DNA of 63,812 nt, counting the filler, from Stramenopiles sp. TOSAG23-2 (Eukaryota): assembly GCA_900128395.1 (NCBI GenBank). It is 3 parts of 3 records of this genome, joined end to end, with 100 filler letters (N's around TTAATTAATTAA, not from the genome) between each part and the next. Parts side by side here need not be neighbours in the genome. Positions count along the whole stretch, not along the records: positions 45,446 to 63,812 come from LT649606.1; 2 more parts are not named here. One strand, 5' to 3'. The notes below the pieces were generated by a model. It saw nothing but the letters and a program-made list of their open reading frames with translations. It was not told the origin of the DNA and ran no database searches. Below, piece by piece: positions 22,629 through 56,706 of this stretch. Position 1 is the first letter of the stretch; each line of letters begins with the position of its first letter. The position numbers were made by a program, and so were the translations under genes.

Positions 22629-22728
22629 NNNNNNNNNNNNNNNNNNNNNNNNNNNNNNNNNNNNNNNNNNNNTTAATTAATTAANNNNNNNNNNNNNNNN
22701 NNNNNNNNNNNNNNNNNNNNNNNNNNNN
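22629..22728. other. Artificial contig-joining linker
   Basis: 44 N + TTAATTAATTAA (stops in all six frames) + 44 N; identical to the linker at 45346-45445. Confidence 0.97.
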
Positions 22729-28511: not shown

Positions 28512-31500
28512 TCACACACTTTCATCATGATGCCCTTCCTCTTCCTCATCATGCTTTTCCTCCTCGAATGCTTGTTTTTCTGATTTTTTTGCAATTTCTA
28601 AAAACACGCTTTCCAAGGTTGTCTGTTGCAAACTCCACTCTTCAATAAGCGTTTTTCGTTGATTTTGTAAAGCTTCAAAAATCATACTGATTTTAATATT
28701 ATCATTTGCTATACTATAAATAATGGAATCACCATGTTCTAAAATTCAAAGGAAATTATTGGTGTTGTGCAAAGCAATATGATATTATAATATATATTAG
28801 ATATATTGTGAGATATGATATGTTAATTTAAATGTAATTATTTATCAATTTAAAGAATAAAAAAAAACTTACCTTCTGTTGGCATGCGCCTTGCTTCATT
28901 TGAAATTGTTGTTTTAACAAAGGTATCAACATCATTTATATTTGCATTGTTTTTCAATACAATTGTTAATTTATAACCACTACCAAATTTATTCTTTAAA
29001 TGCAACTGCGAGCCTATACATCGCAATGTCCCAGAAGCCATGATGCCTACCCTGGTACTTAATGCATCAGCTTCTTCCATGCTGTGTGTTGTCAAGATAA
29101 TAGCCTTTCCTTTCGATTGTTTTTCTATAATTCTCCAAACTACAACCACGGTTGTAGTTTGTATTAATTTCATATGAGAGTGATATTATTATAAAATAAT
29201 AATTATTATTATGGTCAAGGCATATTACTGTTAATAAATATAAATACATACGTGTACAAGGTAAGAGATAACTTAATACATACCTCCTAATTTTGTTTCT
29301 GGGTCTAAACCAGTAGTGGGTTCATCGAAATATAAAATACTTGGGTCTCCAATGATTGCAATTGCTATTGATAATCTACGTTTCATTCCGCCACTTAACT
29401 TTGATGCTTGCCTATGAAAATCATCTCCACCAAGTTCTACTTGCCCTGCTATATCTTGAACTATAGCCATTTCATATTTCTTTTTGACCCCTCTTAATCT
29501 TGCATAAAATAAAAGATGTTCCTTCACGGTCAGTTTTGGCCAAACAACATCAAATTGCGGACATAATCCAGTGATTCTTCTTACATTTCTAATATTCTCA
29601 TTTCCGTGGTCTGTGACATCAAAACCTCCAATAAAAGCATTTCCACTGGTCGCTTTTATAAGTCCACTTAAAATTTGTATCGATGTAGTTTTACCAGCAC
29701 CATTTGGTCCAAGAAGGGAAAATACTTCGTCGTAATCTATTGCAAAAGTAATTCCATCCACAGCAACTTTCGGTGGAGATGCTTGTTGGAAAATTTTTCT
29801 CAAACCAACTATTTTCACTGGCATATCATTTTTATTTAATGCATTCACACGCGTTTCTTCTTCCAATACATCGGAGTCTACAATTCTTTTTTTCCTTGCG
29901 TATGTCGTATATTTTGACGATCCAATTTGTTTATTTTTCTTTCTACATTTACACAAAACCTTGTTTAAAAGATATTTAGAAATAAAAGTCCCTGTTTCCT
30001 CATATAAACTTTGATAATGTATGTATATCCCAATCAAGCCTAGCAATGAGCTTGTCCAGAACATATTTAAGCATGCCATCACAATTGTATGCGGTTGTGC
30101 AGCATTCCTTAGTATTAAAATCAAGGAATATGCAAAAGCAGTGGGAGGGAAAAGCCATAAAATATATGGAAGCCCTTCGCTGCTGTCGATCCATCGAATA
30201 GCCTGCGTTATCCCCATTAATAATAACATGACGAGATACGCAGATAGCGTCTGCAAACGAGTTCTTTTTAAAATCATTGACAAAAAGATACCAAAACCAA
30301 TTTGAGCATATCCCCATACAATTAACATTGCAAAAAGCTGGCCAAAGTTGCAATTTGTAATAACGATCGATCCAAATATATATTGGAAAAGAACAAATGC
30401 AGTGGTAAACGCACTATATACAGCATAGTGAAAAAGATATACGGCACTCCAATATGCAAGTAAACTCCCATTTTGTCCAATAATAGCATGGATTAATTTT
30501 TCCCTCAATTCCATCCCAACAATATAAACAATTCCAGGCAAAGCAAGCATTGTCATTACAGGAAAATAATTCAACAACCAAGTTAATTGTTCCTCAAAAC
30601 GCCAATCCCTTTCAAATCGTAAGTATGGCATGGCGGTTATTTGGGAATTAATTTGAAAATCGTGGTGTTCATTTTCTATAAGGTTGTTATGTTTATAATT
30701 ATCATACAATGCACTGTTTAAAATATGTGTTGTTAAAAAAATTGGTTGAATTAAGAAAGGGCGTTTATCTCGCCTTTGACTCCTTCCATGGTCATGATAA
30801 TGATAATACCTTTTTAATTTTTAGTATATAAAAGTATTGTTAGTTACACCTGAACAAGAAAACAAAAAGCAATGGATACATATATAACTTACGATAATGG
30901 AACAAATGCCTGGGGCCTGATACCTTGACAAATATGGTCATCACGTTGTTTTACTTCTTTCTTGTCGTGTGAATCCCCCTGTGAATAGAAAATTGATGCC
31001 CACCTGTATGTGGCATCTTCTTCACCGTCAGGTATCGCATAAATATGAATGGTATACTTCAGCTGCATGTCTAAGTTTTTTTGCTTCACACTACCACTTG
31101 TTTTTACCTGCTCAAATGTAATTGCATAATCAGGAAACAGTTTTTTTTGTGTATTGATAGCCAATTCCACGGTTGGCACCTCCTGAGACATTTCGCCAAT
31201 CCTGTTCAATTCGCGTTCCCTATGCCAATGATCATGATGCTCATTGCTCATAAAATTTTCCATGCAATCCATATCACTCCGAGGAATGCTTTGGGATTCA
31301 ACTTTTTTCTGGTTTTCTATTAAGATGGCCGCGATGTTTTTATGATGTGAAATATTTATCCCGAGACATCCGAGCATATATTTTGTCGAATTAAAATATA
31401 TTGGCTCAGAAGAAGAAATATTCTTACCATTATGAATATTTCCTAGAGCATTCATCGAAATTGGATGGACAACAGAATCTTTATTCTCAATCCATAGCCT

Positions 31501-34500
31501 AACCAAGTAAGGTTCCAAAGGACTCTCACCTCTCATTGTATTGGCCAAAACACAAAAATCTGGGTACATCGAATCGTTTTGTAATGTCTTTGTTTCCCTA
31601 AATCCATAAACACGCATCCTTTCTTCCATCATTTGTTCATATTCAAATTTCTTCTTTTCCTCGTAACTCATTTCATCTAATTCGTGTAAAAATCTACGAC
31701 CGCTACTATTATTATTGTTAACATCTGGCAAATCGTCTTTGATATGAACAGACGTGTTGTTGATAAAAACGGAAGTGTTTCTATATAAACTACAATCTTC
31801 TCTATAGTTACATTTTCCACCCAAAATGTAATCATGCCAATGAGTTTCATTGCATAAATCAAACCCCCCACCACCAGCATCTTCGACCTCAAAAGTTAAG
31901 CCGCCTGAACAGATTCCTGGTGTTTTCTGTCTTCTCTTGTATTCTTCCTCACCGCCCAACATTGCCCAATGCACAATTAACAATACCAATGATGCTCCGA
32001 AAAGGAAAAACAATTTACAAAAATTGCCAATTTTTTGTTTTTTTAACATTGCATAATCTTTACCCATAAATGCTTTTATTTGTAGCCTTATTGTGCCTTG
32101 CTTTTCGGATGCAAATTTACTAGCTGTGGTATCTAGATTCTGTTCTTTATTGTCATCTATTGCTTTCGTTTTGCTTTCTTCTTCCTCGACTTCCTTTTCC
32201 GTTTCTTCATTTTCATTTTTTAAATTCCTACCAGCAATACGATATAATTGATCAGAAATAACTAAAGGTGCACCTGTGGTGCTATATAACTTAATTGGTT
32301 GGAGTTCCTCATCATTTGCTTCAATAATAGCTTTAAGGGTTGGTAACTTAGAATCATTTTGTAATACAACTGCGTCTTCTCCACCCAAACCGTCCGTATT
32401 GCCTCCCGTATTTGCATTGACCTGTTTTGTTTGTGCTACTAAACGTAGGAATACTTCCTCCAAGGTAGTGTTTGATATGCTCCATTCCTTTACCAACGCA
32501 TCTTTTCCGTGCTTCTCAGCTTCTGCTTCTATGTATTTAAAAAAACCAGGTATTAAAGGCGTCACTCGTTTAGGCAAACCAAACGTCAACGCACCAGCAG
32601 CATTGGCCAATGTTTCCGCGCCAGGCAAATGATGGTTCACTAATTGAATGACTTTATCGGTATCTTTTTCCATGCACATCATTGAGATCGAATACCCGCT
32701 TCCAAATTTATTTTTCAAGAAAAAACTTGTTCCAATTGCCCGTAAACGACCAGCGCTTAAAATGGCTATTTCATCGGACAACGCATCTGCCTCTTCCATG
32801 CTATGCGTCGTTAACACTATAATTCGTCCTTTTTTTAAGCGTTCAATCATTTTCCATATTCGACTACGCGACAATGGGTCTAAACCAGTTGTTGGCTCGT
32901 CTAAGAAAATCACTTTTGGATGCCCCATAGCGCTCATTCCTACAGACAAACGACGTCTCATTCCCCCACTAAATGTGGAGGCTAAAACGTCCCCTTTCCC
33001 TTCCAAAGAAATGTCTGCCAATGTTTGACGGACATGCGCATCTAATTGATTGCGTGGAACGCCTTTAAATCTAGCCCAAAATCGTAGATGCTCCTCAGCA
33101 CTCATTTCTTTAAACAAGATGTCCTCTTGAGGACACACTCCCATCATCTTTTGTACTTGCGTCATGTCCTTTTTAATGCTTTTTCCAAGAACAAATACTT
33201 CACCATGTGTAACATTATATAAGCCTGTTAAACAATTGATTGCAGTCGTTTTTCCAGCACCATTGTGTCCTAATAAACAAAAAACTTGATTACTTTTCAT
33301 GATCAACGAAACTTCTTTTAATGCTGTGACAGTTTTAAATGATTTCGACATATTGTACACTCGTAAACTACGTTCACGTTTACTCTTTACCCTTTCCTCG
33401 TTAAGACGATCCCCATCAACGACAGTTTCTTCCTTTCCATTTTCTTCATGTTTTCTGCTTATACATGCCCAATATTTACGAGATAAGCAAAATAATTTCT
33501 TTTTCGCTCCTTTGCTAAAAATTTGTGCAAAATACCAAGTCAAGGCAATATATATAATTGTAAGTGCAAACATGTACATCATTTCATCATGGATGGATGG
33601 TGCCCACCATATAGGGCCAATTTCGTCACCATGATGGTCGTACTATGTTAAAATAAATAAGCAGATTATATGGAAATATTTTTTTCTGTTAGCATAATTA
33701 TTGTAAACATAATTTTTTTATAGTATAATTAAAATATGAAATACAGAGAATAAATGAATGTGTATATACATGTACATGTGTACTTACAATTGCATCGAAT
33801 GGTTCACCTGTATCTTTGCCAATTTTATCGTATATCATATCCCATTTATAATATGTACTATTGGCTGTGACATTTTTTTGGACCGTACTGTTATCACGTT
33901 TAACGTTTGTAGTTGAAGAGGACGGACCAGCTGTTGTTACACTTTGCGTCTCTTCTATTCCCATACCTTCTACCTTTGTTACAGTCAATATGTTGAAAAA
34001 TATTCTTATATAATGAAACCAAGGCATCATAAAAAAACAAAATTGTACAATCGGTGAATATTCGATTGAATAACTCTCGTTCCATATAGTACCATCTTCA
34101 TGCCCATTGACGAAAGTGCAAAAAAGTATCACAAATACAAGTAAAAGGAATGAAACTAAATTTACGCTATTCATACCCGTCAAAAACGAACTTAGAAACA
34201 ATCCCATACTATACATAGATGTAAGAAAGAAAAACCATGCTACAAAATGAACACCAAAGTCACAATTTTTGAAGAGATAAATATTAGTAAAAAATTTACC
34301 AACAATCGCCGCTACTAAACCTGAGCACAAAGATATTACAACTAATACAATCATCCAACTTATCCAATATGTGCCTTCATGTAGACCCATCATACGCATG
34401 TATCCAAGTAACCGTGCACGTTTCTCGCCTGTAACCGCGTTTATGATTAACAACGCTGAAACCAGTGGTCCTATTGGCAAAATCATTGGCCCCCCGAAAG

Positions 34501-35458
34501 GAATAAAACTTTGCGCATTGGAATACACATCCAGATTATCACGGTTTTTAATTGCTTCCTCAAGTTCGTAATCTGGTATTGGTTTCAGTGTTATTTGCAA
34601 GTCTATCTTTGACGGATCGCCACCGTTATTACGTACAATTATAGCTTGGTTGATATTATTTTGCAACGCAATGTTTTGCAAAGGAAAAAAACTTTCTGCA
34701 TCTGAGTTAGTGTTAGATAAACTTACTGCATATCGCTCAAAGTTCGATGCGTTTACCATCAATGTATACGTAGCACCCGTTGGGTCATTTTCGATATCAA
34801 AAAATAATGCTGCATCCAATGCTCCTAAATGGCTGAACATGAATTTTGAAATTTCTAACTTATCTTTCATACCGACAATATCAGCGCCACCTGCAAGGTC
34901 CCGGTACTTTTGTCCATCCGAAGGAAAAATAATATCACTTGACTTTTCAACACCAACTTTAATTTTCCAACCGTCATTATTGACTACTTTTTCGTTTTCT
35001 TCTTCTTTATTTTCGTTGTCTACGAATATATTCATAATATCGTCTGTTACTTCAGTAGAAGGCCCATACATTATGGTAATGCACGATGGGCTTTGGTCAT
35101 CAAACCCAATACACTGAATAGGTTTTAGTTGAATACCAATAGGTTCGACATATTCACTTCTATGAGAATTCAACGCTCCAGTGTTTATGATAGCTAATTC
35201 CATAATAAATAAACTAGGTAAAAAGACTAACAATAATACAGTGCATATTCTCCTTGATAATATTATTATATTTTTCATTACCAAGGCATCCATTTGCGAT
35301 GTCCACTCGTACAACCAAGTATTTGATACTGACGTTTGACCGTTAAGTGTTGGTGAATAAAAAAATTTAAAGTTTGAAGGTGGGTTTAAATTTGTATCAT
35401 TATTATTATTATTATCGACTACTGATGAAACATCTACGTTATATTTGCTAGTAGACAT
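28512..35458 (-). CDS. ABCA full transporter, 5 exons (35458-33788, 33642-30893, 30809-29284, 29139-28873, 28738-28512), ~2146 aa
   Basis: Two TMD-NBD halves (GHNGAGKTT/FSGGMRRRL/LDEPTTGLDP; GPNGAGKTT/LSGGMKRRL), ABCA tails TTLEEVFL and TTLESVFL; four GT-AG introns restore the frame. Confidence 0.93.
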
Positions 35459-49219: not shown

Positions 49220-51661
49220 AATAGCATTAGCCCCTCCATTATAATTCGTAATTTGCAACTTTCCAGTTTCGCTAATTGATAATGTTGTTTTAGACGTACC
49301 CGTGCCCGCTTCTAATGCCGATCCAGATGGAGTGTTGCCAATAATACCACACTTGCCGCCAAATTTTGTGGAATCATCCCCCCTGGGTTTGCTACATTTA
49401 CGATAACCTGGAAGCATAATATCTTTAACGTTTTCATTGTACACTTGAATAAATCCCGATGTTATCATGTTAGAGTACTCACGAAGCATGTAATGATACG
49501 TATCGGATTTAGGCTTCATGACATCTAGTGTGTCTAAAGGTGTACTTTTATATTTTACCGGCATCGGGTTAGCTGGTACAGTCGTTGCCCACTGGGAAAA
49601 CGTAGATTCGCCGTTGTCGTTCTCTTTCATGTCTTTCGGAGGTGTCCCTCCAACATACGCAGATCTTATACATTTGTTTGCAAGGGAACTTTGTTTCTTT
49701 TTCTTCGAATTTTTGCTCATCTTCGCTTCCAAATTTAGTTTAAATGCTCCTCCGTATGATTCCGACGTCTCTAAAAACGTAGATGGGCCCTTCTGTGTCT
49801 TTTCTGGCGGACAGCATAAATCACAAGCCCCATTTCCAGCTCTAGTTTCTACTTTATAACCCTCTTTATACTTATCTTCGTGTTCTTGAATATTTCTGTT
49901 CGCACAGCATCCCTCAGACGTTGCCTGTGCATCTTGTATTATCCATTGTTCCCACCTCGGTAATGGATTAGTAAACGTTCCTTTGCATTTGTCTTTCCAG
50001 CATACGTAGTGACAACTTTCATGATTATCGCCATCTGATGCCTTCTTGGCACCATCGATGTGTTCTACCTCATCTATTTGTTTGTCCTCCGTAGGCAAAT
50101 CTACCATTTCTAAACATTTTCCATTGATTGATTTAAAGTCGTCATTAGATGAAAAGCTGCACGTAATTCCTTGGAACTGACGCGGATAATTTAAGCGGTT
50201 AAAACGGCATCGAGAGGGTTTATTATTAAACTCTTCACAAGGCATATCTTCATCAGGCGTCATCCACGCGTAAAGACTACTCTGATATGATTCAGATGTA
50301 CTGGAAGCGTATTCTGATTTATAGCATTGCCCACCTTCACCAAAACCACCATTTCGTCGCATTGCGCATAATTTTCCTTGAAACATACGAGGTTTGCCCC
50401 CTAAATTTAAAAAACATTGACTTGGATTGTCGTTAAATTTCGTACATGGTTCGGTATCATACATATCAGCCCCATCAATAGGCCTTTCACCGCCAGCTGT
50501 TGCTTTTTGAGTATCACAAGCTTGTTTGCATATTGAGCCGGAGCATTCTTTCACTGTTTTATCTCCCTTATATTTCTTTTGAGTCTTTGCCTGTGCAACG
50601 CACAACATTATACATTGCCCGCACAAATTTTTTTCTGGGAGAACGGTAACCCCATTCATTATAGGCGCTGGCATTGGATCTCGTTTTACAGGTTCGTAGT
50701 TTCCATCATTTCCCGCAGAAAGTGAAACCGATAACATGAAAGAAGCAGATACTTGCATGCCTTTTTCTTTCATAGAACGGTCTGTGCTTCGTTTAATTAT
50801 CATTTCCGAAACAAATTTCCCTCCAACATGAATTTCGCTTAAATAATGTGTCCCGTAAGTTTTGAAGAACATAATCCACGTTTTTTTTTGATGCAAGGCT
50901 AATTTGTCGCCTTTAGAATTTAAAACAGGAAGCAAGTTTACTTGAGTCTTGAAGTCGGAAGTTACATTATCATGGATATGATTTTCATATGTATACAATC
51001 CCATACGATATAACAAACAAAATGACCGTGTCATGTATCGGTTGAATTCTTTTTTCTCAACTATTTTCTCTGCTTCTTTATATTTTGCAGACGCTTTAAA
51101 TGCACCTGAAATTTCTGCAACTCCAGACACACCACCTTTACCCCTTACCTCAACTGTCATTTCCGCATTTAATTCTTTGGAATAGTCGTGTGAGGAGGTC
51201 ATTTTGCTGACTTGACTGGAGAACGAACACGCCTTTTCGGGATATCTGTATCCAAATCTAGGCGCGGCGGCATAACCAAATTTCTGAAGCCTCGAGATGT
51301 TATTTATACCTCCAGCGTAAACTACATCAACAATTTTTTTTCGATATCCGGGATCAACACTTGACATTATATCCCCTTCAGGATTCCCTTCAAAAATATC
51401 ATAACCTATTCCAAGGTATTCACTGCTTTTTGGAGGAAGTCTAGGTATGGCTTTATAATCTTGATGATTCACAATATCTATTCTATTGGGTTGCTGAAAT
51501 TGGAAAGCTGCACCACCTTGATTGTTAATCACAGGCGCAGCTTCTTGACGTGGCAAACCTCTCGCCTTTCGTGCGCGGACCTTGTTCTCATTTATTGTAA
51601 TTGTTACTACCAAAAAGAGCACAAAGTTACGCCAAAAGTTGAAGTGGACAAAATGAAACAT
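47585..51661 (-). CDS. Secreted MACPF/perforin-like protein A with Cys-rich insert, bulb-type lectin, PAN/Apple module and cationic repeat tail
   Basis: Hydrophobic N-terminus; YLGIGYDIFEGNPEGD..VDPGYR; MACPF signature FFKTYGTHYLSEIHVGGK; WATTVPANPMPVKY; THDNNFVIY..IWQTRT; CLEAC..CTGATW..HCTL. Confidence 0.9.
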   Translation of the reverse strand: MFHFVHFNFWRNFVLFLVVTITINENKVRARKARGLPRQEAAPVINNQGGAAFQFQQPNRIDIVNHQDYKAIPRLPPKSSEYLGIGYDIFEGNPEGDIMSSVDPGYRKKIVDVVYAGGINNISRLQKFGYAAAPRFGYRYPEKACSFSSQVSKMTSSHDYSKELNAEMTVEVRGKGGVSGVAEISGAFKASAKYKEAEKIVEKKEFNRYMTRSFCLLYRMGLYTYENHIHDNVTSDFKTQVNLLPVLNSKGDKLALHQKKTWIMFFKTYGTHYLSEIHVGGKFVSEMIIKRSTDRSMKEKGMQVSASFMLSVSLSAGNDGNYEPVKRDPMPAPIMNGVTVLPEKNLCGQCIMLCVAQAKTQKKYKGDKTVKECSGSICKQACDTQKATAGGERPIDGADMYDTEPCTKFNDNPSQCFLNLGGKPRMFQGKLCAMRRNGGFGEGGQCYKSEYASSTSESYQSSLYAWMTPDEDMPCEEFNNKPSRCRFNRLNYPRQFQGITCSFSSNDDFKSINGKCLEMVDLPTEDKQIDEVEHIDGAKKASDGDNHESCHYVCWKDKCKGTFTNPLPRWEQWIIQDAQATSEGCCANRNIQEHEDKYKEGYKVETRAGNGACDLCCPPEKTQKGPSTFLETSESYGGAFKLNLEAKMSKNSKKKKQSSLANKCIRSAYVGGTPPKDMKENDNGESTFSQWATTVPANPMPVKYKSTPLDTLDVMKPKSDTYHYMLREYSNMITSGFIQVYNENVKDIMLPGYRKCSKPRGDDSTKFGGKCGIIGNTPSGSALEAGTGTSKTTLSISETGKLQITNYNGGANAIWNNGLAAPEAKYCMEYTHDNNFVIYHADTSANDPIWQTRTNANGCTAKAGMVLLTKEGFLEVWGIDKNGKPDLTWYAGKDAHANGFSKCVVAEAEECVEDSENKDKIFELENWNSRHGGKSNKNRRKVRRNEINELKAKINLCDEAKASAQAQKDIIARREKKTKDFATAIFNRDSNKEGQRQAKLHHEKNKFMSPAQQQRFNKVKLKYSVRKNQKLLAETLKKMDASTLLDCLEACDKLRECTGATWHSKKGVGHCTLAKGLADETIDAENCFEKASKQYGTLTETGALGRKMELSITEGDWGKAKYPPFGCSVENDGDNLKVHWNSNTETESTQGQLEGDRYLKVVDTIGTTAGDDGENAYIRNDNVLRAKGGDGDGYAIGCKTYKNDVGYIQFLQDEIKTGKKSKTRYARISFLETSKSTRKLFVRRKAAVKQQFFKKARKAFGKAAKKAKKALGKAAKKAKKALGKAAKGAKKFLGKAAKAIGLTKAVNYLRNPSGNKLSKNMRRSREREIKALSILSKQCEAFRDNCNNDKDCSLAISG

Positions 51662-53042
51662 CTATGGCGTCCTACTATACTGTAACAATATTGCTTCGAT
51701 GCATATAAAACAACGCGATGTTGGGGAAGAAACGTATATTCATATGATATAACTAACATGTAATAATAGTAAATTGCAATTTGCAATAATAATTAAATAA
51801 TAATAAAAATGTTGTTAATTATTATTATTATTTATTATTATTATTAGAAGAAGAAGTGCAAAGAAGAAAAGTGCCGTGAAAAAGGCAAGGACCCCTGCCC
51901 TGAATGATGGTGAAACGATGGTAATGTCGTTAAACAAGGGGAAAATTAAGGAGGGGATTAAGCGTGTAATAAAAAGGCGTGCTTAATGGACACAGCATAG
52001 GTATGTGAAATAAGGAGTTTCAAATGTGGTAATTGTTTAAGTTATTTTTGTGTAGTATTTACTGGTCTAGCATTTAGAATGCGATGAATCATGAATCCTT
52101 AATTGAAGGAGGTGGAAGTAAAAACAACTACGTAGCATCGATAAGGTGCGCCGAATAGCATGTCAGAACGTCAGAAGTCGTCAGAAGTCGTCAGAACAGC
52201 CATAGCAACGTGCCATGTGCCATACAAAAGCATGAAGATCCAGTTCTACTTTAGTAGTACGCAGTTTTGGAGATTCGTACTATACGAACATAGCAGGCTG
52301 GCAGGCCCGGACCAAAATTGTCCCACTTTACCTGCTATTTATATGTTATTCGAAGTGGAATTCTCTACACACAGTATATGTATGGTTTACTATAATATTT
52401 TATACTACACGTATTTTATTACCTTTTTCCTTAAATACTTCTTTCTTCCAATTCTCTTCTTTGTTATCTTGCTTTGTTAACACCCCTATACACACATGCA
52501 CCTATCAGCTACTATACGGGTACTCGGGTATACGTACTAGTATTAGTCTATTATCGTAGATTAGTATTTAATTATAGTATGCCAGGTATTATAGTTTATA
52601 CTAGTATGCTAATGCTAAGGCACACTGGCACACATATCTTATAATAATAGTAAATAATAATAATAAATAATAATACTGAGTAATAAAAATAAATATATAG
52701 GCTTAATGGTTTAGTAGTCTAGGAATAGCTAGGGCTGGTATAAACACAGAGGAAAGTCCAAAAAAGGACATTCGTTAGTTAGTAGCGACATAGTATTAGT
52801 GCAAATAGTAGCATGTCGATACCGTATCTCCTTTTTTTTATCGGTGTGCCAACTCGCCAACTCTCCTCGTTATATGTACCGGTTTATAAAATAAGATATC
52901 GGAATTCAATATGAAAACACTACAAGGACTAAAGCACTAAAGCACTAAAACCAGTAAAAAATGATATGTTAAAATCTAAGTTAATTTAAATTGTGTATTA
53001 TATTTTAATTACGATCTGATGATCGCTCTTATAGAAATTACA

Positions 53043-54721
53043 ACTGAGAGTATTATTTCAAAAACAATTCCCATATACTATAGATTTTATCCAGAAATTG
53101 CTAAAGAACAATCTTTGTCATTATTACAATTATCGCGAAATGCTTCACATTGCTTACTGAGAATAGATAAAGCTTTAATTTCTCTTTCTCTAGAACGTCT
53201 CATATTTTTTGACAGTTTGTTTCCAGATGGATTTCTTAAATAATTGACTGCTTTTGTTAAACCAATTGCTTTCGCAGCCTTTCCTAAAAATTTCTTAGCG
53301 CCTTTCGCAGCCTTTCCTAAAGCTTTCTTAGCCTTTTTTGCAGCCTTTCCTAAAGCTTTCTTAGCCTTTTTTGCAGCCTTTCCAAAAGCTTTCCTAGCCT
53401 TTTTAAAAAACTGTTGTTTTACTGCTGCTTTACGCCTAACAAATAATTTCCGAGTAGACTTACTTGTCTCTAAAAAACTTATTCTTGCATATCGTGTTTT
53501 TGATTTTTTACCTGTTTTAATTTCATCTTGTAAAAACTGAATGTAACCAACGTCATTTTTATAAGTTTTACAACCTATCGCATATCCATCACCATCACCA
53601 CCTTTAGCTCGAAGCACATTGTCATTTCTAATATACGCATTTTCACCGTCATCGCCAGCAGTCGTGCCAATCGTATCAACAACTTTCAAATACCGATCAC
53701 CTTCAAGTTGCCCTTGAGTCGATTCTGTTTCTGTGTTGCTATTCCAATGGACTTTTAAATTATCTCCATCATTTTCAACACTGCATCCAAATGGAGGATA
53801 CTTCGCTTTACCCCAGTCGCCTTCCGTTATACTCAATTCCATTTTTCTACCCAAAGCCCCTGTTTCAGTCAGAGTACCATACTGTTTTGAGGCTTTCTCG
53901 AAACAATTTTCTGCATCTATAGTTTCATCTGCTAATCCTTTTGCCAATGTGCAATGTCCCACCCCTTTTTTACTGTGCCATGTAGCACCGGTACATTCGC
54001 GAAGCTTATCGCATGCTTCTAAACAATCCAAAAGTGTTGATGCATCCATTTTTTTTAATGTCTCCGCCAATAATTTTTGGTTTTTCCGTACAGAATACTT
54101 TAATTTCACTTTATTAAATCGTTGCTGTTGTGCCGGCGACATAAATTTGTTCTTCTCATGATGCAATTTTGCTTGGCGCTGTCCCTCCTTGTTGCTATCT
54201 CTGTTAAAAATTGCCGTCGCAAAATCTTTTGTTTTCTTCTCTCTTCGTGCAATAATGTCTTTTTGAGCTTGTGCACTTGCTTTCGCTTCGTCGCAAAGAT
54301 TTATTTTCGCTTTCAATTCGTTGATTTCATTTCGGCGTACCTTCCTTCTGTTTTTATTGCTTTTACCACCATGTCTAGAGTTCCAATTTTCCAATTCAAA
54401 TATTTTGTCTTTATTTTCACTATCTTCTACGCATTCTTCCGCTTCTGCTACAACGCATTTACTAAAACCATTTGCATGTGCATCTTTCCCAGCATACCAT
54501 GTCAGATCTGGTTTACCATTTTTGTCAATACCCCACACTTCTAAAAAGCCTTCCTTTGTAAGCAATACCATCCCTGCCTTTGCCGTGCACCCGTTTGCAT
54601 TGGTCCTTGTTTGCCAAATTGGGTCATTTGCCGAAGTATCGGCATGGTAAATGACAAAATTGTTGTCGTGGGTGTATTCCATGCAATATTTTGCTTCTGG
54701 TGCAGCTAGGCCATTATTCCA
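53043..54721. repeat. 1679-bp direct repeat, copy 2 (3' part of MACPF-B)
   Basis: Matches 47541-49219. Confidence 0.95.
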
Positions 54722-56095
54722 GATCGTATCCTCTTCGCCATATTCTGCAGTAATCCTAAGATTTGCGTCGGCATTAATTGAAAGCTGTTTCTTAAACGAA
54801 CCGTCCCCGGCAATTAGCGCTGCTGTATCTGGCGCATGACTGTTAAGCATTCCACAAGAACCGCCATTTTTAACAGCATCAGTGCCTGGCACACTACATC
54901 TTCTTTCTCCTGGTTTCATCATGTCCTTGTATGTGTTTCCAATATCTTTACTAAGTAAACCACCCATAGCTACATCTTTGACATATGTAGCTCTTTGTGA
55001 TAGCATATAAGCATATGTTTCTGCTAGATTGTTTTCTTGAAATATATTTAACTCATCAAATTGTGATAATTTGTATTTTACTGGCATGGGGCTATTTGGA
55101 ACTGTTCTGGCCCAGTCAGCAAATTCGTTATGAGGATCACCTCCCAGCGTATACTGTTGAAAACATTTTTCTTCCGAGTCTGACGTTGCTTCAGCAGAAC
55201 TACCTTCCTCCTTGCTCAAGGACAATGATGCGGACCCTTCGGCGCTCTTACCGGTAACAGATCCCTCTAGTGACATACCCGCATGAAAACCTTTCTTTGC
55301 AAGTTTGCGAACACTTGACGACTTCATATACATGATGTTGTTCATTTTTCCACCGAAGTGTACATCAGATAAAAAGTGGGTCCCGTAATCTCTAAACAAC
55401 TCATGCCAAGCTACCTCATCAAAGTCAGGATCAGGTTTACTTTTCAAAGCTTTTACTCTTTCTGCAAATGGAGGTTTGACTTTTAAAGGCTTATTGGTAT
55501 CCACCCCGGAGCGATATACTAAACAATACGATTTCATAAGAAAACGTTCAACCTTGTGCGTTGCAACTGTTTGTGCAAAATTACTGAATCCTGCAGATGC
55601 CCCGAACGAGGCAGATGCTTTCGACCCAGTTAAAACATTCTTCTTCGTAGCCGAGAGTGCTATACTGGCATCCGCCTTAAGGTTCTTGCTGTAATCTGAT
55701 GTCTCAGTCTCTTTTGTTGATTGTTTTGCCATTTGACACGATTTTTCGGTAATTGCAAAGCCGTACTTGGGTCGTAATTTGGACAGTCCGGTGTTTCTGT
55801 ACTCTTGACTAAATTCAAGATCAACAACGCCCTTTCGGAATCCGGGGTCGACCATGGTGCGAGAGGCAGGATCGCCTTCGGGATTACCCTTAAATATATC
55901 GTACCCAATTCCTACATATCCAGAAGCTAGTCCAGGATATTTCTCTCCTATCATTTCTTTAGATGCTACAACGTGTTCAAATGCTTGTGGTGCTGATTGC
56001 GTACGCAGTAGCTCTTGACTTTCCGTGGTTGGTAAAACTGTCGCCGTAATTACCAACACGATAGTAAACAAAAGCATATTTTTAATGTGAAACAT
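53087..56095 (-). CDS. Secreted MACPF/perforin-like protein B with the same C-terminal modules as A
   Basis: Probable start MFHIKNMLLFTIVLVITA (signal peptide); YVGIGYDIFKGNPEGD..VDPGFR; LFRDYGTHFLSDVHFGGK; WARTVPNSPMPVKY. Confidence 0.9.
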   Translation of the reverse strand: MFHIKNMLLFTIVLVITATVLPTTESQELLRTQSAPQAFEHVVASKEMIGEKYPGLASGYVGIGYDIFKGNPEGDPASRTMVDPGFRKGVVDLEFSQEYRNTGLSKLRPKYGFAITEKSCQMAKQSTKETETSDYSKNLKADASIALSATKKNVLTGSKASASFGASAGFSNFAQTVATHKVERFLMKSYCLVYRSGVDTNKPLKVKPPFAERVKALKSKPDPDFDEVAWHELFRDYGTHFLSDVHFGGKMNNIMYMKSSSVRKLAKKGFHAGMSLEGSVTGKSAEGSASLSLSKEEGSSAEATSDSEEKCFQQYTLGGDPHNEFADWARTVPNSPMPVKYKLSQFDELNIFQENNLAETYAYMLSQRATYVKDVAMGGLLSKDIGNTYKDMMKPGERRCSVPGTDAVKNGGSCGMLNSHAPDTAALIAGDGSFKKQLSINADANLRITAEYGEEDTIWNNGLAAPEAKYCMEYTHDNNFVIYHADTSANDPIWQTRTNANGCTAKAGMVLLTKEGFLEVWGIDKNGKPDLTWYAGKDAHANGFSKCVVAEAEECVEDSENKDKIFELENWNSRHGGKSNKNRRKVRRNEINELKAKINLCDEAKASAQAQKDIIARREKKTKDFATAIFNRDSNKEGQRQAKLHHEKNKFMSPAQQQRFNKVKLKYSVRKNQKLLAETLKKMDASTLLDCLEACDKLRECTGATWHSKKGVGHCTLAKGLADETIDAENCFEKASKQYGTLTETGALGRKMELSITEGDWGKAKYPPFGCSVENDGDNLKVHWNSNTETESTQGQLEGDRYLKVVDTIGTTAGDDGENAYIRNDNVLRAKGGDGDGYAIGCKTYKNDVGYIQFLQDEIKTGKKSKTRYARISFLETSKSTRKLFVRRKAAVKQQFFKKARKAFGKAAKKAKKALGKAAKKAKKALGKAAKGAKKFLGKAAKAIGLTKAVNYLRNPSGNKLSKNMRRSREREIKALSILSKQCEAFRDNCNNDKDCSLAISG

Positions 56096-56306
56096 TTCTT
56101 GCAAATTAAATTCTTTCATATAAAGCTCTGTCAAAAAGTTAATCGCTTCTATAACACATTTTTAACATCAAATATCTATTACCGAAATATTTATTTATTA
56201 TTTATTTCTAGACTATTAGCAATTAGTGCATTACCGAAATATTTTTATATTTTATTATTATTATTAGTCTAGCTGGCTAGCTCTACTATTATTATTTTTT
56301 AATAAT

Positions 56307-56706
56307 ATTTTTTGCTGGTTAGCACAGTATACCATACCCTTTTTTTCTAATACATCATTTTCTCTTCTTACTCCGTCTCCTCGTTTTACTTGTCGTCGAC
56401 ATAGATGTGTTGTGCAGTGTAGGAGCGGAATAGTGATTTTTTGCTGGTTAGCACAGTATACCATACCCTTTTTTTCTAATACATCATTTTCTCTTCTTAC
56501 TCCGTCTCCTCGTTTTACTTGTCGTCGACATAGATGTGTTGTGCAGTGTAGGAGCGGAATAGTGATTTTTTGCTGGTTAGCACAGTATACCATACCCTTT
56601 TTTTCTAATACATCATTTTCTCTACTCACTCCGACTCCTCGTTTTTACTTGACGTTTTATCCTCCGGATAGATGTGAGTGCAGTGTGCAGTACGAGCGGA
56701 ATAGTG
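56307..56706. repeat. 129-bp tandem repeat x3 (third copy diverged) in divergent intergenic region
   Basis: gctggttagcacagtataccatacc at 56314, 56443 and 56572. Confidence 0.95.

Follow-up and report, generated by a model that had tools for sequence, protein, structure and literature searches.

Among described pore-forming proteins, the perforin-like proteins (PLPs) of apicomplexans come closest to the protein reported here. In TgPLP1, the second transmembrane hairpin segment of the MACPF domain (TMH2) is a pair of helices, partly disordered and open to solvent, and no other part of the domain is as exposed or as mobile; trypsin cuts this pair, and the oligomeric crystal form was obtained only after the cut (PMC5943054; this and the other papers named below are cited from excerpts). 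In PvPLP2, TMH2 refolds into one of two membrane-spanning hairpins, and locking it with a disulfide, K735C/E771C, yields membrane-bound pre-pore arcs while the membrane stays intact (PMC13529673). TMH2 is uninterrupted in these apicomplexan proteins. In contrast, it is interrupted in the product of a gene described here, gene A, which lies in a 63,812-nucleotide stretch of DNA (the window) from Stramenopiles sp. TOSAG23-2 (GenBank assembly GCA_900128395.1). Gene A encodes a MACPF protein with a 315-residue, Cys-rich insert in TMH2; pore formation should thereby be blocked or gated. The gene is real, expressed and structurally odd. The mechanism is a proposal only, and we tentatively favor one in which the insert acts as a built-in latch on TMH2, released by proteolysis of its linkers.

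Activation by proteases recurs in the superfamily, having been described for BSAP-1, for the cholesterol-dependent cytolysin-like proteins (CDCLs) and, as cited in those reports, for Mpf2Ba1. In BSAP-1, EaCDCL and Mpf2Ba1, much as a latch would work in A, a regulatory piece is cut off before the hairpins deploy. That piece is an N-terminal domain or a near-N-terminal activation loop in BSAP-1 and the CDCLs (20–50 residues in the latter) and lies outside the hairpins, whereas A has its array inside the TMH2 turn and the cleavage is our proposal. The locked PvPLP2 behaves as would be predicted for uncut A, but the lock is an artificial single cross-link to a helix–turn–helix motif and A has a natural inserted domain. 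In CDCLs and in the membrane attack complex (MAC), one special subunit joins many copies of a second; for A and its paralogue B, the hint of such a division is that the genes are in tandem and share a C-terminal half. Astrotactin-2 and the BRINPs resemble A in that the TMH region of their MACPF domain is unlike that of typical pore formers (PMC5483515, PMC5943054). In those proteins one TMH is ~30 residues short, whereas in A both appear to have arms of normal length and amphipathic character, with a domain added at the turn. A full-text literature search found no MACPF protein with a domain inserted in a TMH, which is not proof of absence.

An insert within the second hairpin segment

Gene A appears to encode, in order, a signal-peptide-like N-terminus, a MACPF domain split by the insert, a lectin-like domain, a PAN-like domain and K/A-rich repeats. 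The features needed for the argument are these.

47585–51661, minus strand: gene A, a single open reading frame (ORF) of 1358 amino acids (aa)
50711–51418, minus strand: N-terminal part of the MACPF domain of A (residues 82–317), with beta1–beta3, TMH1 and the YGTHYLSEIHVGG signature, placed by Pfam and the TgPLP1 alignment
50711–50785, minus strand: TMH2 N-arm (residues 293–317, TDRSMKEKGMQVSASFMLSVSLSAG), of alternating polarity
49766–50710, minus strand: the insert (residues 318–632), 315 aa with 22 Cys, stop-free, from NDGNYE to STFLET
49676–49765, minus strand: TMH2 C-arm (residues 633–662), containing the strongly amphipathic AFKLNLEAKM
49547–49675, minus strand: remainder of the MACPF domain after TMH2 (residues 663–705), from strand beta4 KCIRSAYVGG through PMPVKYK
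53087–56134, minus strand: gene B, the paralogue without the insert, 1015 aa counted from TTG

Both proteins match the Pfam MACPF family (PF01823), with 104.2 bits for A and 101.4 bits for B against a cutoff of 21.5. The match is one stretch in B (residues 176–362, profile positions 2–196) and two in A, of which the best (residues 187–313) covers profile positions 2–123 of 214. A also contains the MACPF signature (residues 269–281), worded for the central strand as Y/F-G-T/S-H-x7-G-G (PMC5483515). The best MACPF sequence matches of A are apicomplexan PLPs, namely TgPLP1 (5oup; E 1.1e-26 with A alone), PvPLP2 (9xda; E 3.3e-58) and Plasmodium PLP1, with which it has in common the YGTH...GG signature, the PMPVK motif and, apparently, the lengths of the TMHs.

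A preliminary description of this DNA had placed the insert within TMH2 (CH2), at the tip of the hairpin, and alignments to known structures bear this out; the coordinates given there are exact, and the flanking strings it quoted for A and B are present as written. With phmmer, A residues 81–317 align to TgPLP1 9–251 and residues 651–714 to 258–319. In PvPLP2, the alignment of A runs up to residue 310 (at 738) and resumes from residue 641 (at 742), the break coinciding with a 3-residue gap in the PvPLP2 chain. Protein searches returned P0004–P0007 and P0025 as the only MACPF relatives, and a seven-sequence alignment (A3) was built from A, B, P0004, P0025, P0005 and two Plasmodium PLP1 proteins. 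All six relatives show a single clean gap in place of the insert: the distance from the GG of beta3 to the GG of beta4 is 70–74 aa in these proteins versus 395 aa in A. The A3 profile aligns to 5oup unbroken across the TMH2 segment (E 6.6e-84). Because the arms on either side are 25 and 30 residues long, the insert lies at, or within a few residues of, the hairpin turn.

The arms themselves look well preserved. Over the best 9-residue stretch, their beta-amphipathic moments reach 0.57 and 1.01, compared with 0.36–0.99 for the 12 arms of the six relatives, so that the C-arm ranks top of the 14. Of the 46 columns invariant in the other six proteins, A retains 43, and B gives the same count. Since the arms alternate in polarity and these positions are retained, A looks like a working MACPF protein. 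An AF2 model of A residues 60–900, made with the seven rows of A3, had a mean predicted local distance difference test score (pLDDT) of 40. It recovered the flanking strands (residues 272–290 and 664–670), with nothing reliable between them, and left the insert unstructured except for two short helices. The MACPF fold is a bent sheet of four strands with a helical cluster on each flank; Foldseek ranked the TgPLP1 MACPF domain first for this model (E 3.5e-7), but the root-mean-square deviation was 25–26 angstroms.

An exposed loop of this kind could also tolerate insertion in a protein that no longer makes pores. A might be a repurposed MACPF protein serving adhesion, signaling or recognition, the insert adding binding modules at a tolerant loop; TMH2, as the most exposed and mobile part of TgPLP1, would be a permissive site. 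Non-lytic MACPF proteins exist, and such a role has been proposed for astrotactins and BRINPs (PMC5483515). Moreover, the marine relative P0005 has a different MACPF insertion of ~220 residues at another loop, between the second core strand and the helix preceding the YGTH signature, and large loop insertions may be habitual in this protein group. Yet pore formers have two TMHs of similar length and alternating polarity, and the non-lytic proteins described show mismatched or shortened ones, whereas those of A are roughly matched, at ~49 aa for TMH1 and ~55–58 aa for TMH2 without the insert (~370 aa with it), lengths that are approximate, since they rest on alignments and on a model of low quality. 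The amphipathic arms and the retained invariant positions also argue against this explanation, which we consider unlikely.

The insert has the character of native coding sequence. At local base composition, the chance of 315 open codons is ~1.4e-10, and the other five frames contain 14–33 stops. G+C content at third codon positions is 0.327 in the insert and 0.325 in the N-terminal MACPF part, and codon usage compared with the rest of gene A gives a cosine of 0.90 in frame versus 0.75 and 0.67 out of frame; it is because of these two matches that the insert looks native. Its amino acid composition stands apart, with 22 Cys in the insert and two each in A residues 1–317 and 633–760.

Near-identical sequence was found in 20 of 24 listed public sea-water runs, from 12 studies, 11 recorded as RNA. 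Contigs were compared from four runs of four studies, comprising three RNA libraries (X2, X5 and X8) and one DNA library (X6); an RNA library can contain DNA. RNA-library contigs are colinear with gene A over 49230–51706. One of them (X5 rec 4, 49230–50778) crosses both insert junctions. Two others (X2 rec 3, 50145–51706; X8 rec 15, 50329–50789) bridge the 5' junction, and the 3' junction is bridged by X2 rec 1 (49230–49801, RNA library) and X6 rec 8 (49416–49906, DNA). RNA contigs of two studies end 37–45 nt upstream of the ATG of A (51698 and 51706), consistent with a transcript end, at a place that the DNA contig comparison lacks. No spliced joint across the insert was seen in contigs of the four runs, although contigs drop rare forms. 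The insert is retained in RNA-library contigs of three studies; neither of the two findings that would have refuted the preliminary description, a position outside TMH2 or removal by splicing, was made. These data confirm that the insert of gene A is real and not an artefact of a single assembly.

Two further observations concern the same contigs. DNA contig X6 rec 9 stops exactly where the insert has its 5' edge, at 50710, and the following contig begins at 50747. Three RNA-library contigs bridge this spot, so the break probably stems from a polymorphism bubble in the sequence coding for the N-arm. Ocean contigs carry three variants, K758E (49390), K603T (49854, within the insert) and a synonymous change at G366 (50564), too few to judge selection on the insert.

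An intron as the main form was rejected, given the unspliced contigs and an open frame with host-like codon usage. A subtler possibility is that the insert is an exitron, spliced out of part of the transcripts so that A is made with and without it. A suitable GT..AG pair is available, with GTAAAA at 50689 and TTTTTAGAG ending at 49769; removal of these 921 nt would excise residues 325–631 and keep the frame open. But such a pair is expected by chance, since, of the 84 GT/AG pairs lying near the edges, 32 keep the frame, and the apparent intron in a neighboring gene is, by eye, only ~50 nt. The contigs of the four runs contain no joint, and three RNA-library contigs bridge the junctions unspliced, with the caveat on rare forms given above. 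We regard partial splicing as very improbable.

The least credible explanation is that of an artefact or a dead gene, in which the assembly is chimeric or an insertion has disrupted a paralogue that is decaying. Assembly trouble could be signaled by a 1679-nt tract of perfect identity between A and B, and a database fragment similar to the insert (P0008, below) diverges after KGPS. Contigs from four runs of four studies independently reproduce both junctions, however. The open frame (P ~1e-10), host-like codon usage, conserved MACPF core and RNA-library contigs that reach ~40 nt upstream of the ATG likewise speak against this explanation, which is already largely refuted.

Cys-rich modules and linkers

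The insert divides into four disulfide-type modules, enclosed by two linkers that lack Cys and are rich in Pro, Gly and charged residues.

50624–50710, minus strand: N-linker (residues 318–346), Cys-free and Pro-rich, with a KR pair
50516–50623, minus strand: module N (residues 347–382), 6 Cys, CxxCxxxC...CxxxxCxxxC; two helices predicted at low confidence
50321–50449, minus strand: module R1 (residues 405–447), 4 Cys, PCxxFxxNPxxC...C...C; pairwise match to P0024, E 1.2e-10
50111–50242, minus strand: module R2 (residues 474–517), the second 4-Cys copy; matches the same stretch of P0024, E 0.011
49811–50014, minus strand: C-module (residues 550–617), 8 Cys, with a 27-residue extra loop
49751–49810, minus strand: C-linker (residues 618–637, PPEKTQKGPSTFLETSESYG), Cys-free, with TFLETS at 49763–49780

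An acidic spacer lies between module R2 and the C-module, and the C-module has the motif C-x3-C-x-D-x-C-x-GT-x-TNP-x-P...W...GCC...G-x-C-x-x-CC. An exhaustive HMMER search with the insert against 1.84 billion representatives gave 17 proteins at E up to 0.001. For 14 of these (P0009, P0010 and P0012–P0023), the best stretch is approximately insert residues 191–282, the start of the 8-Cys module; P0024 matches the 4-Cys module. P0011, a DUF5648 repeat protein, has its best stretch at insert residues 109–156 and could be assigned to neither module family. Of the 15 match proteins that are not A-like and fall in P0009–P0023, nine proved in a pattern scan to have the 8-Cys motif in tandem, and C-terminal hydrophobic anchors are present in P0013, P0017 and P0022 (alignment A4). 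As judged from these matches, the C-module is an extracellular-type module, and secreted or membrane-anchored proteins are where the two module types are found again.

The only A-like match is P0008, a fragment of 132 aa with 98% identity to insert residues 202–311. P0008 carries K603T, as does one DNA contig, and beyond KGPS its sequence gives way to a tail that looks TA-rich and is absent from the window. Chimerism of the contig, a different allele, or an intron carried by a relative could each explain it.

Other searches came back blank. Pfam gave no family on the insert at E up to 1; among the 17 match proteins, no Pfam family covers the modules, and five have unrelated families only. PDB sequences gave no match to the insert at E up to 10, the ESM Atlas none that was usable with either the whole insert or residues 225–305, and a JGI metagenome scan produced 198 pattern matches, none of which was confirmed. 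A tblastn search found no second copy or donor of the modules in the window. The preliminary description had spoken of a folded domain, and this holds in part: one of the four modules, the C-module, gave a middling model (pLDDT 63, core ~80), but the others stayed unfolded in silico. With the C-module model, Foldseek found nothing in the PDB at E up to 0.001, and VIA-align in wide mode reached a best Z of 3.1, which is unusable.

Inteins contain a Hint domain and conserved residues at the splice junctions. Along with the blank Pfam result, nothing in the insert appears to resemble those junction residues. Because the relatives of the modules are secreted or membrane-anchored, and Pfam, PDB, ESM Atlas and fold searches are blank, the insert is best seen as an array of extracellular-type modules, probably binding ones; an enzyme is not suggested.

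This bears on the idea, raised earlier, that the array is cargo. A might join the open end of an inserted arc of B, whereupon the turn and its array would cross the lumen and be displayed on the far side. PvPLP2 pores do grow as inserted arcs gain subunits, and their lumen measures 76 angstroms (PMC13529673). The array consists of small modules on flexible linkers, and it sits at the turn, the sole point of a hairpin that reaches the far side. But the scheme is pure conjecture for which we found no precedent, a disulfide-rich array would face a reducing cytosol, and the searches give no hint of enzymatic or toxic activity (no Pfam families, no PDB sequence matches and no fold match). Far-side display is distinctly improbable. 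It would make the TMH2 turn a delivery arm for the array through the lumen of a B arc; a milder version, in which the array is a ligand sensor and target binding frees TMH2, seems to us just as much a long shot.

Gene A and its paralogue

Genes A and B are in tandem on the minus strand, and each opens with a hydrophobic signal-like segment, the likely start of B being an ATG at 56095 that aligns with the start of A. Beyond the MACPF domain, Pfam gave only sub-threshold hits (PAN in both, B_lectin in A), and Foldseek matches the C-terminal part of the A model (mean pLDDT 40) to monocot lectin folds. The APC-beta domain found at the C-terminus of apicomplexan PLPs was not detected in A or B, and the Plasmodium rows of A3 do not align with A or B past the MACPF domain. 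Since APC-beta is replaced in A and B by monocot-lectin-like, PAN-like and cationic 11-residue repeat segments, we do not place them in the apicomplexan PLP family.

The two genes differ sharply in how far they have diverged along their length.

47541–49219 and 53043–54721, minus strand: tract identical in A and B, 1679 nt, 100% identity

This tract comprises the C-terminal 544 codons plus 44 nt past the stop, and it starts abruptly inside the lectin-like domain. Over MACPF columns, by contrast, A and B are 37% identical, within the range of 31–37% seen between A and all the others, whereas B, P0004 and P0025 are mutually 52–60% identical. Judged by sequence, the MACPF domain of A is an old paralogue of that of B. 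The identity of the tract reflects either recent gene conversion or assembly collapse.

Such a pair would suit a reading in which A is a permanently non-penetrating subunit that never fully inserts TMH2: the array at its membrane-facing end would bind a target surface molecule, and A would seed or cap B oligomers, by analogy with C5b-8 for C9 or a long CDCL for a short one. The genes are in tandem; the MACPF domains are paralogues of old date, but over the last 1679 nt the two genes do not differ, as if both proteins needed the same binding or trafficking part. The C-module family includes the C-terminally anchored P0013, P0017 and P0022 and is therefore of extracellular type. Heteromeric pores with one initiator are known, at 1:29 in EaCDCL and in the MAC (PMC11952106). 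Against this, the arms of A match or exceed those of its relatives in amphipathicity, which a never-inserting hairpin would not need; contact between A and B, or their co-expression, is not in evidence; and the identical tract could be assembly collapse. We hold a non-penetrating partner to be possible, nearly as likely as a latch, though doubtful in its own right.

Within the shared tract, both genes have a 33-nt tandem DNA repeat (47734–47935 and 53236–53437; A residues ~1250–1300). It encodes 11-residue K/A-rich units, GKAAKKAKKAL-like, with SFLETS before them and a small Cys-rich tail after. The repeats are strongly cationic and probably form an amphipathic helix, like lipid-binding or antimicrobial peptides; they may be a membrane-binding or released part of the A and B proteins. 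Upstream of gene B, at 56307–56693, a 129-nt unit occurs three times in tandem (two copies identical, one 67%). An ABC-2-type ABC-transporter gene (29273–35458, minus strand) consists of three ORFs, apparently parted by short introns, one of which, by eye, is ~50 nt with GTAAGT...CAG. Because this gene is apparently split in this way, the genome would seem to have introns; A and B are without them. The window has six N runs totaling 242 bases (including those at 22629–22728, 45346–45445, 46783–46810 and 60940–60977), all in intergenic or unassigned sequence and none within A or B.

A possible latch on the hairpin

We return to the reading that we favor, in which the array is a built-in latch. 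It is suggested by the conserved arms, the trypsin sensitivity of TMH2 in TgPLP1, the protease-activated relatives and an [ST]FLETS motif at the edge of the insert. From what is observed, namely the position of the insert, its presence in RNA libraries, its Cys-rich modules and the conservation of arms and core, we infer a block, its relief by cutting and the sites of the cuts. The four-module array would have been grafted, through two flexible Cys-free linkers, onto the TMH2 turn of an otherwise intact MACPF protein. Uncut A would fold, bind via the C-terminal domains common with B and probably oligomerize. It should not perforate, because a hairpin turn would be unable to drag a cross-linked array of 315 residues, with up to 11 disulfides, through the bilayer. 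Cutting of the linkers by a protease would then permit perforation, with TFLE/TS at the 3' edge as a candidate site; release of the other arm would require the Pro-rich N-linker to be cut as well. Since the arms keep the hairpin signature, it can be argued that TMH2 of A is still selected to enter the membrane.

The candidate site had been described as flanking the insert. In six frames of the window, [ST]FLE[TS] has three matches, of which two are the identical A/B copy. It is present at the 3' edge of the insert but at that edge only, plus once in the shared C-terminal part, and is absent in the relatives P0004 and P0025, so the support it gives is weak.

47960–47977, minus strand: second [ST]FLETS (A residues 1229–1234), just upstream of the K/A-rich 11-residue repeats

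The motif resembles the self-cleavage sites of plasmepsin X, which include NFLD, SSIE and IALE (PMC9352755).

Several points weigh against a latch. The cleavage is proposed, and a protease for the cut is not known. The plasmepsin analogy may not apply, as nothing shows the organism, a marine planktonic eukaryote, to be apicomplexan; among named matches, those closest to the neighboring ACOX gene are from labyrinthulomycetes and a dinoflagellate, at 39–45% identity. TFLETS is short, and chance could give such a motif at one edge of the insert and not in P0004 or P0025. A four-module array with 22 Cys is elaborate for a plug, and that its module types occur in surface proteins speaks for binding. 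Apart from the P0008 fragment, the searches gave no orthologue of A, which leaves conservation of the linkers beyond judgment, and the whole-domain model is too poor to place the array against the MACPF core.

Pores of the MACPF/CDC type are believed to require two hairpins with short turns from each subunit, and the regulatory pieces that we found described all lie outside the hairpins. A is a MACPF protein that occurs in nature, from a transcribed gene; its TMH2 turn bears a cross-linked array of 35 kDa, and beside it is encoded an uninterrupted paralogue with an identical C-terminal half. The pair is a ready-made experiment on what becomes of a pore when one subunit has its hairpin blocked, whether that subunit seeds the pore, caps it or poisons it, and it also asks whether a nicked hairpin can insert and what load a hairpin turn can bear. 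If the delivery arm or ligand sensor were true, it would be a new coupling of target recognition or cargo to a giant beta-barrel pore. The insert itself defines two families of Cys-rich modules with no match in Pfam. More broadly, perforin-like proteins of apicomplexan type exist in free-living marine plankton, where they carry different targeting domains.

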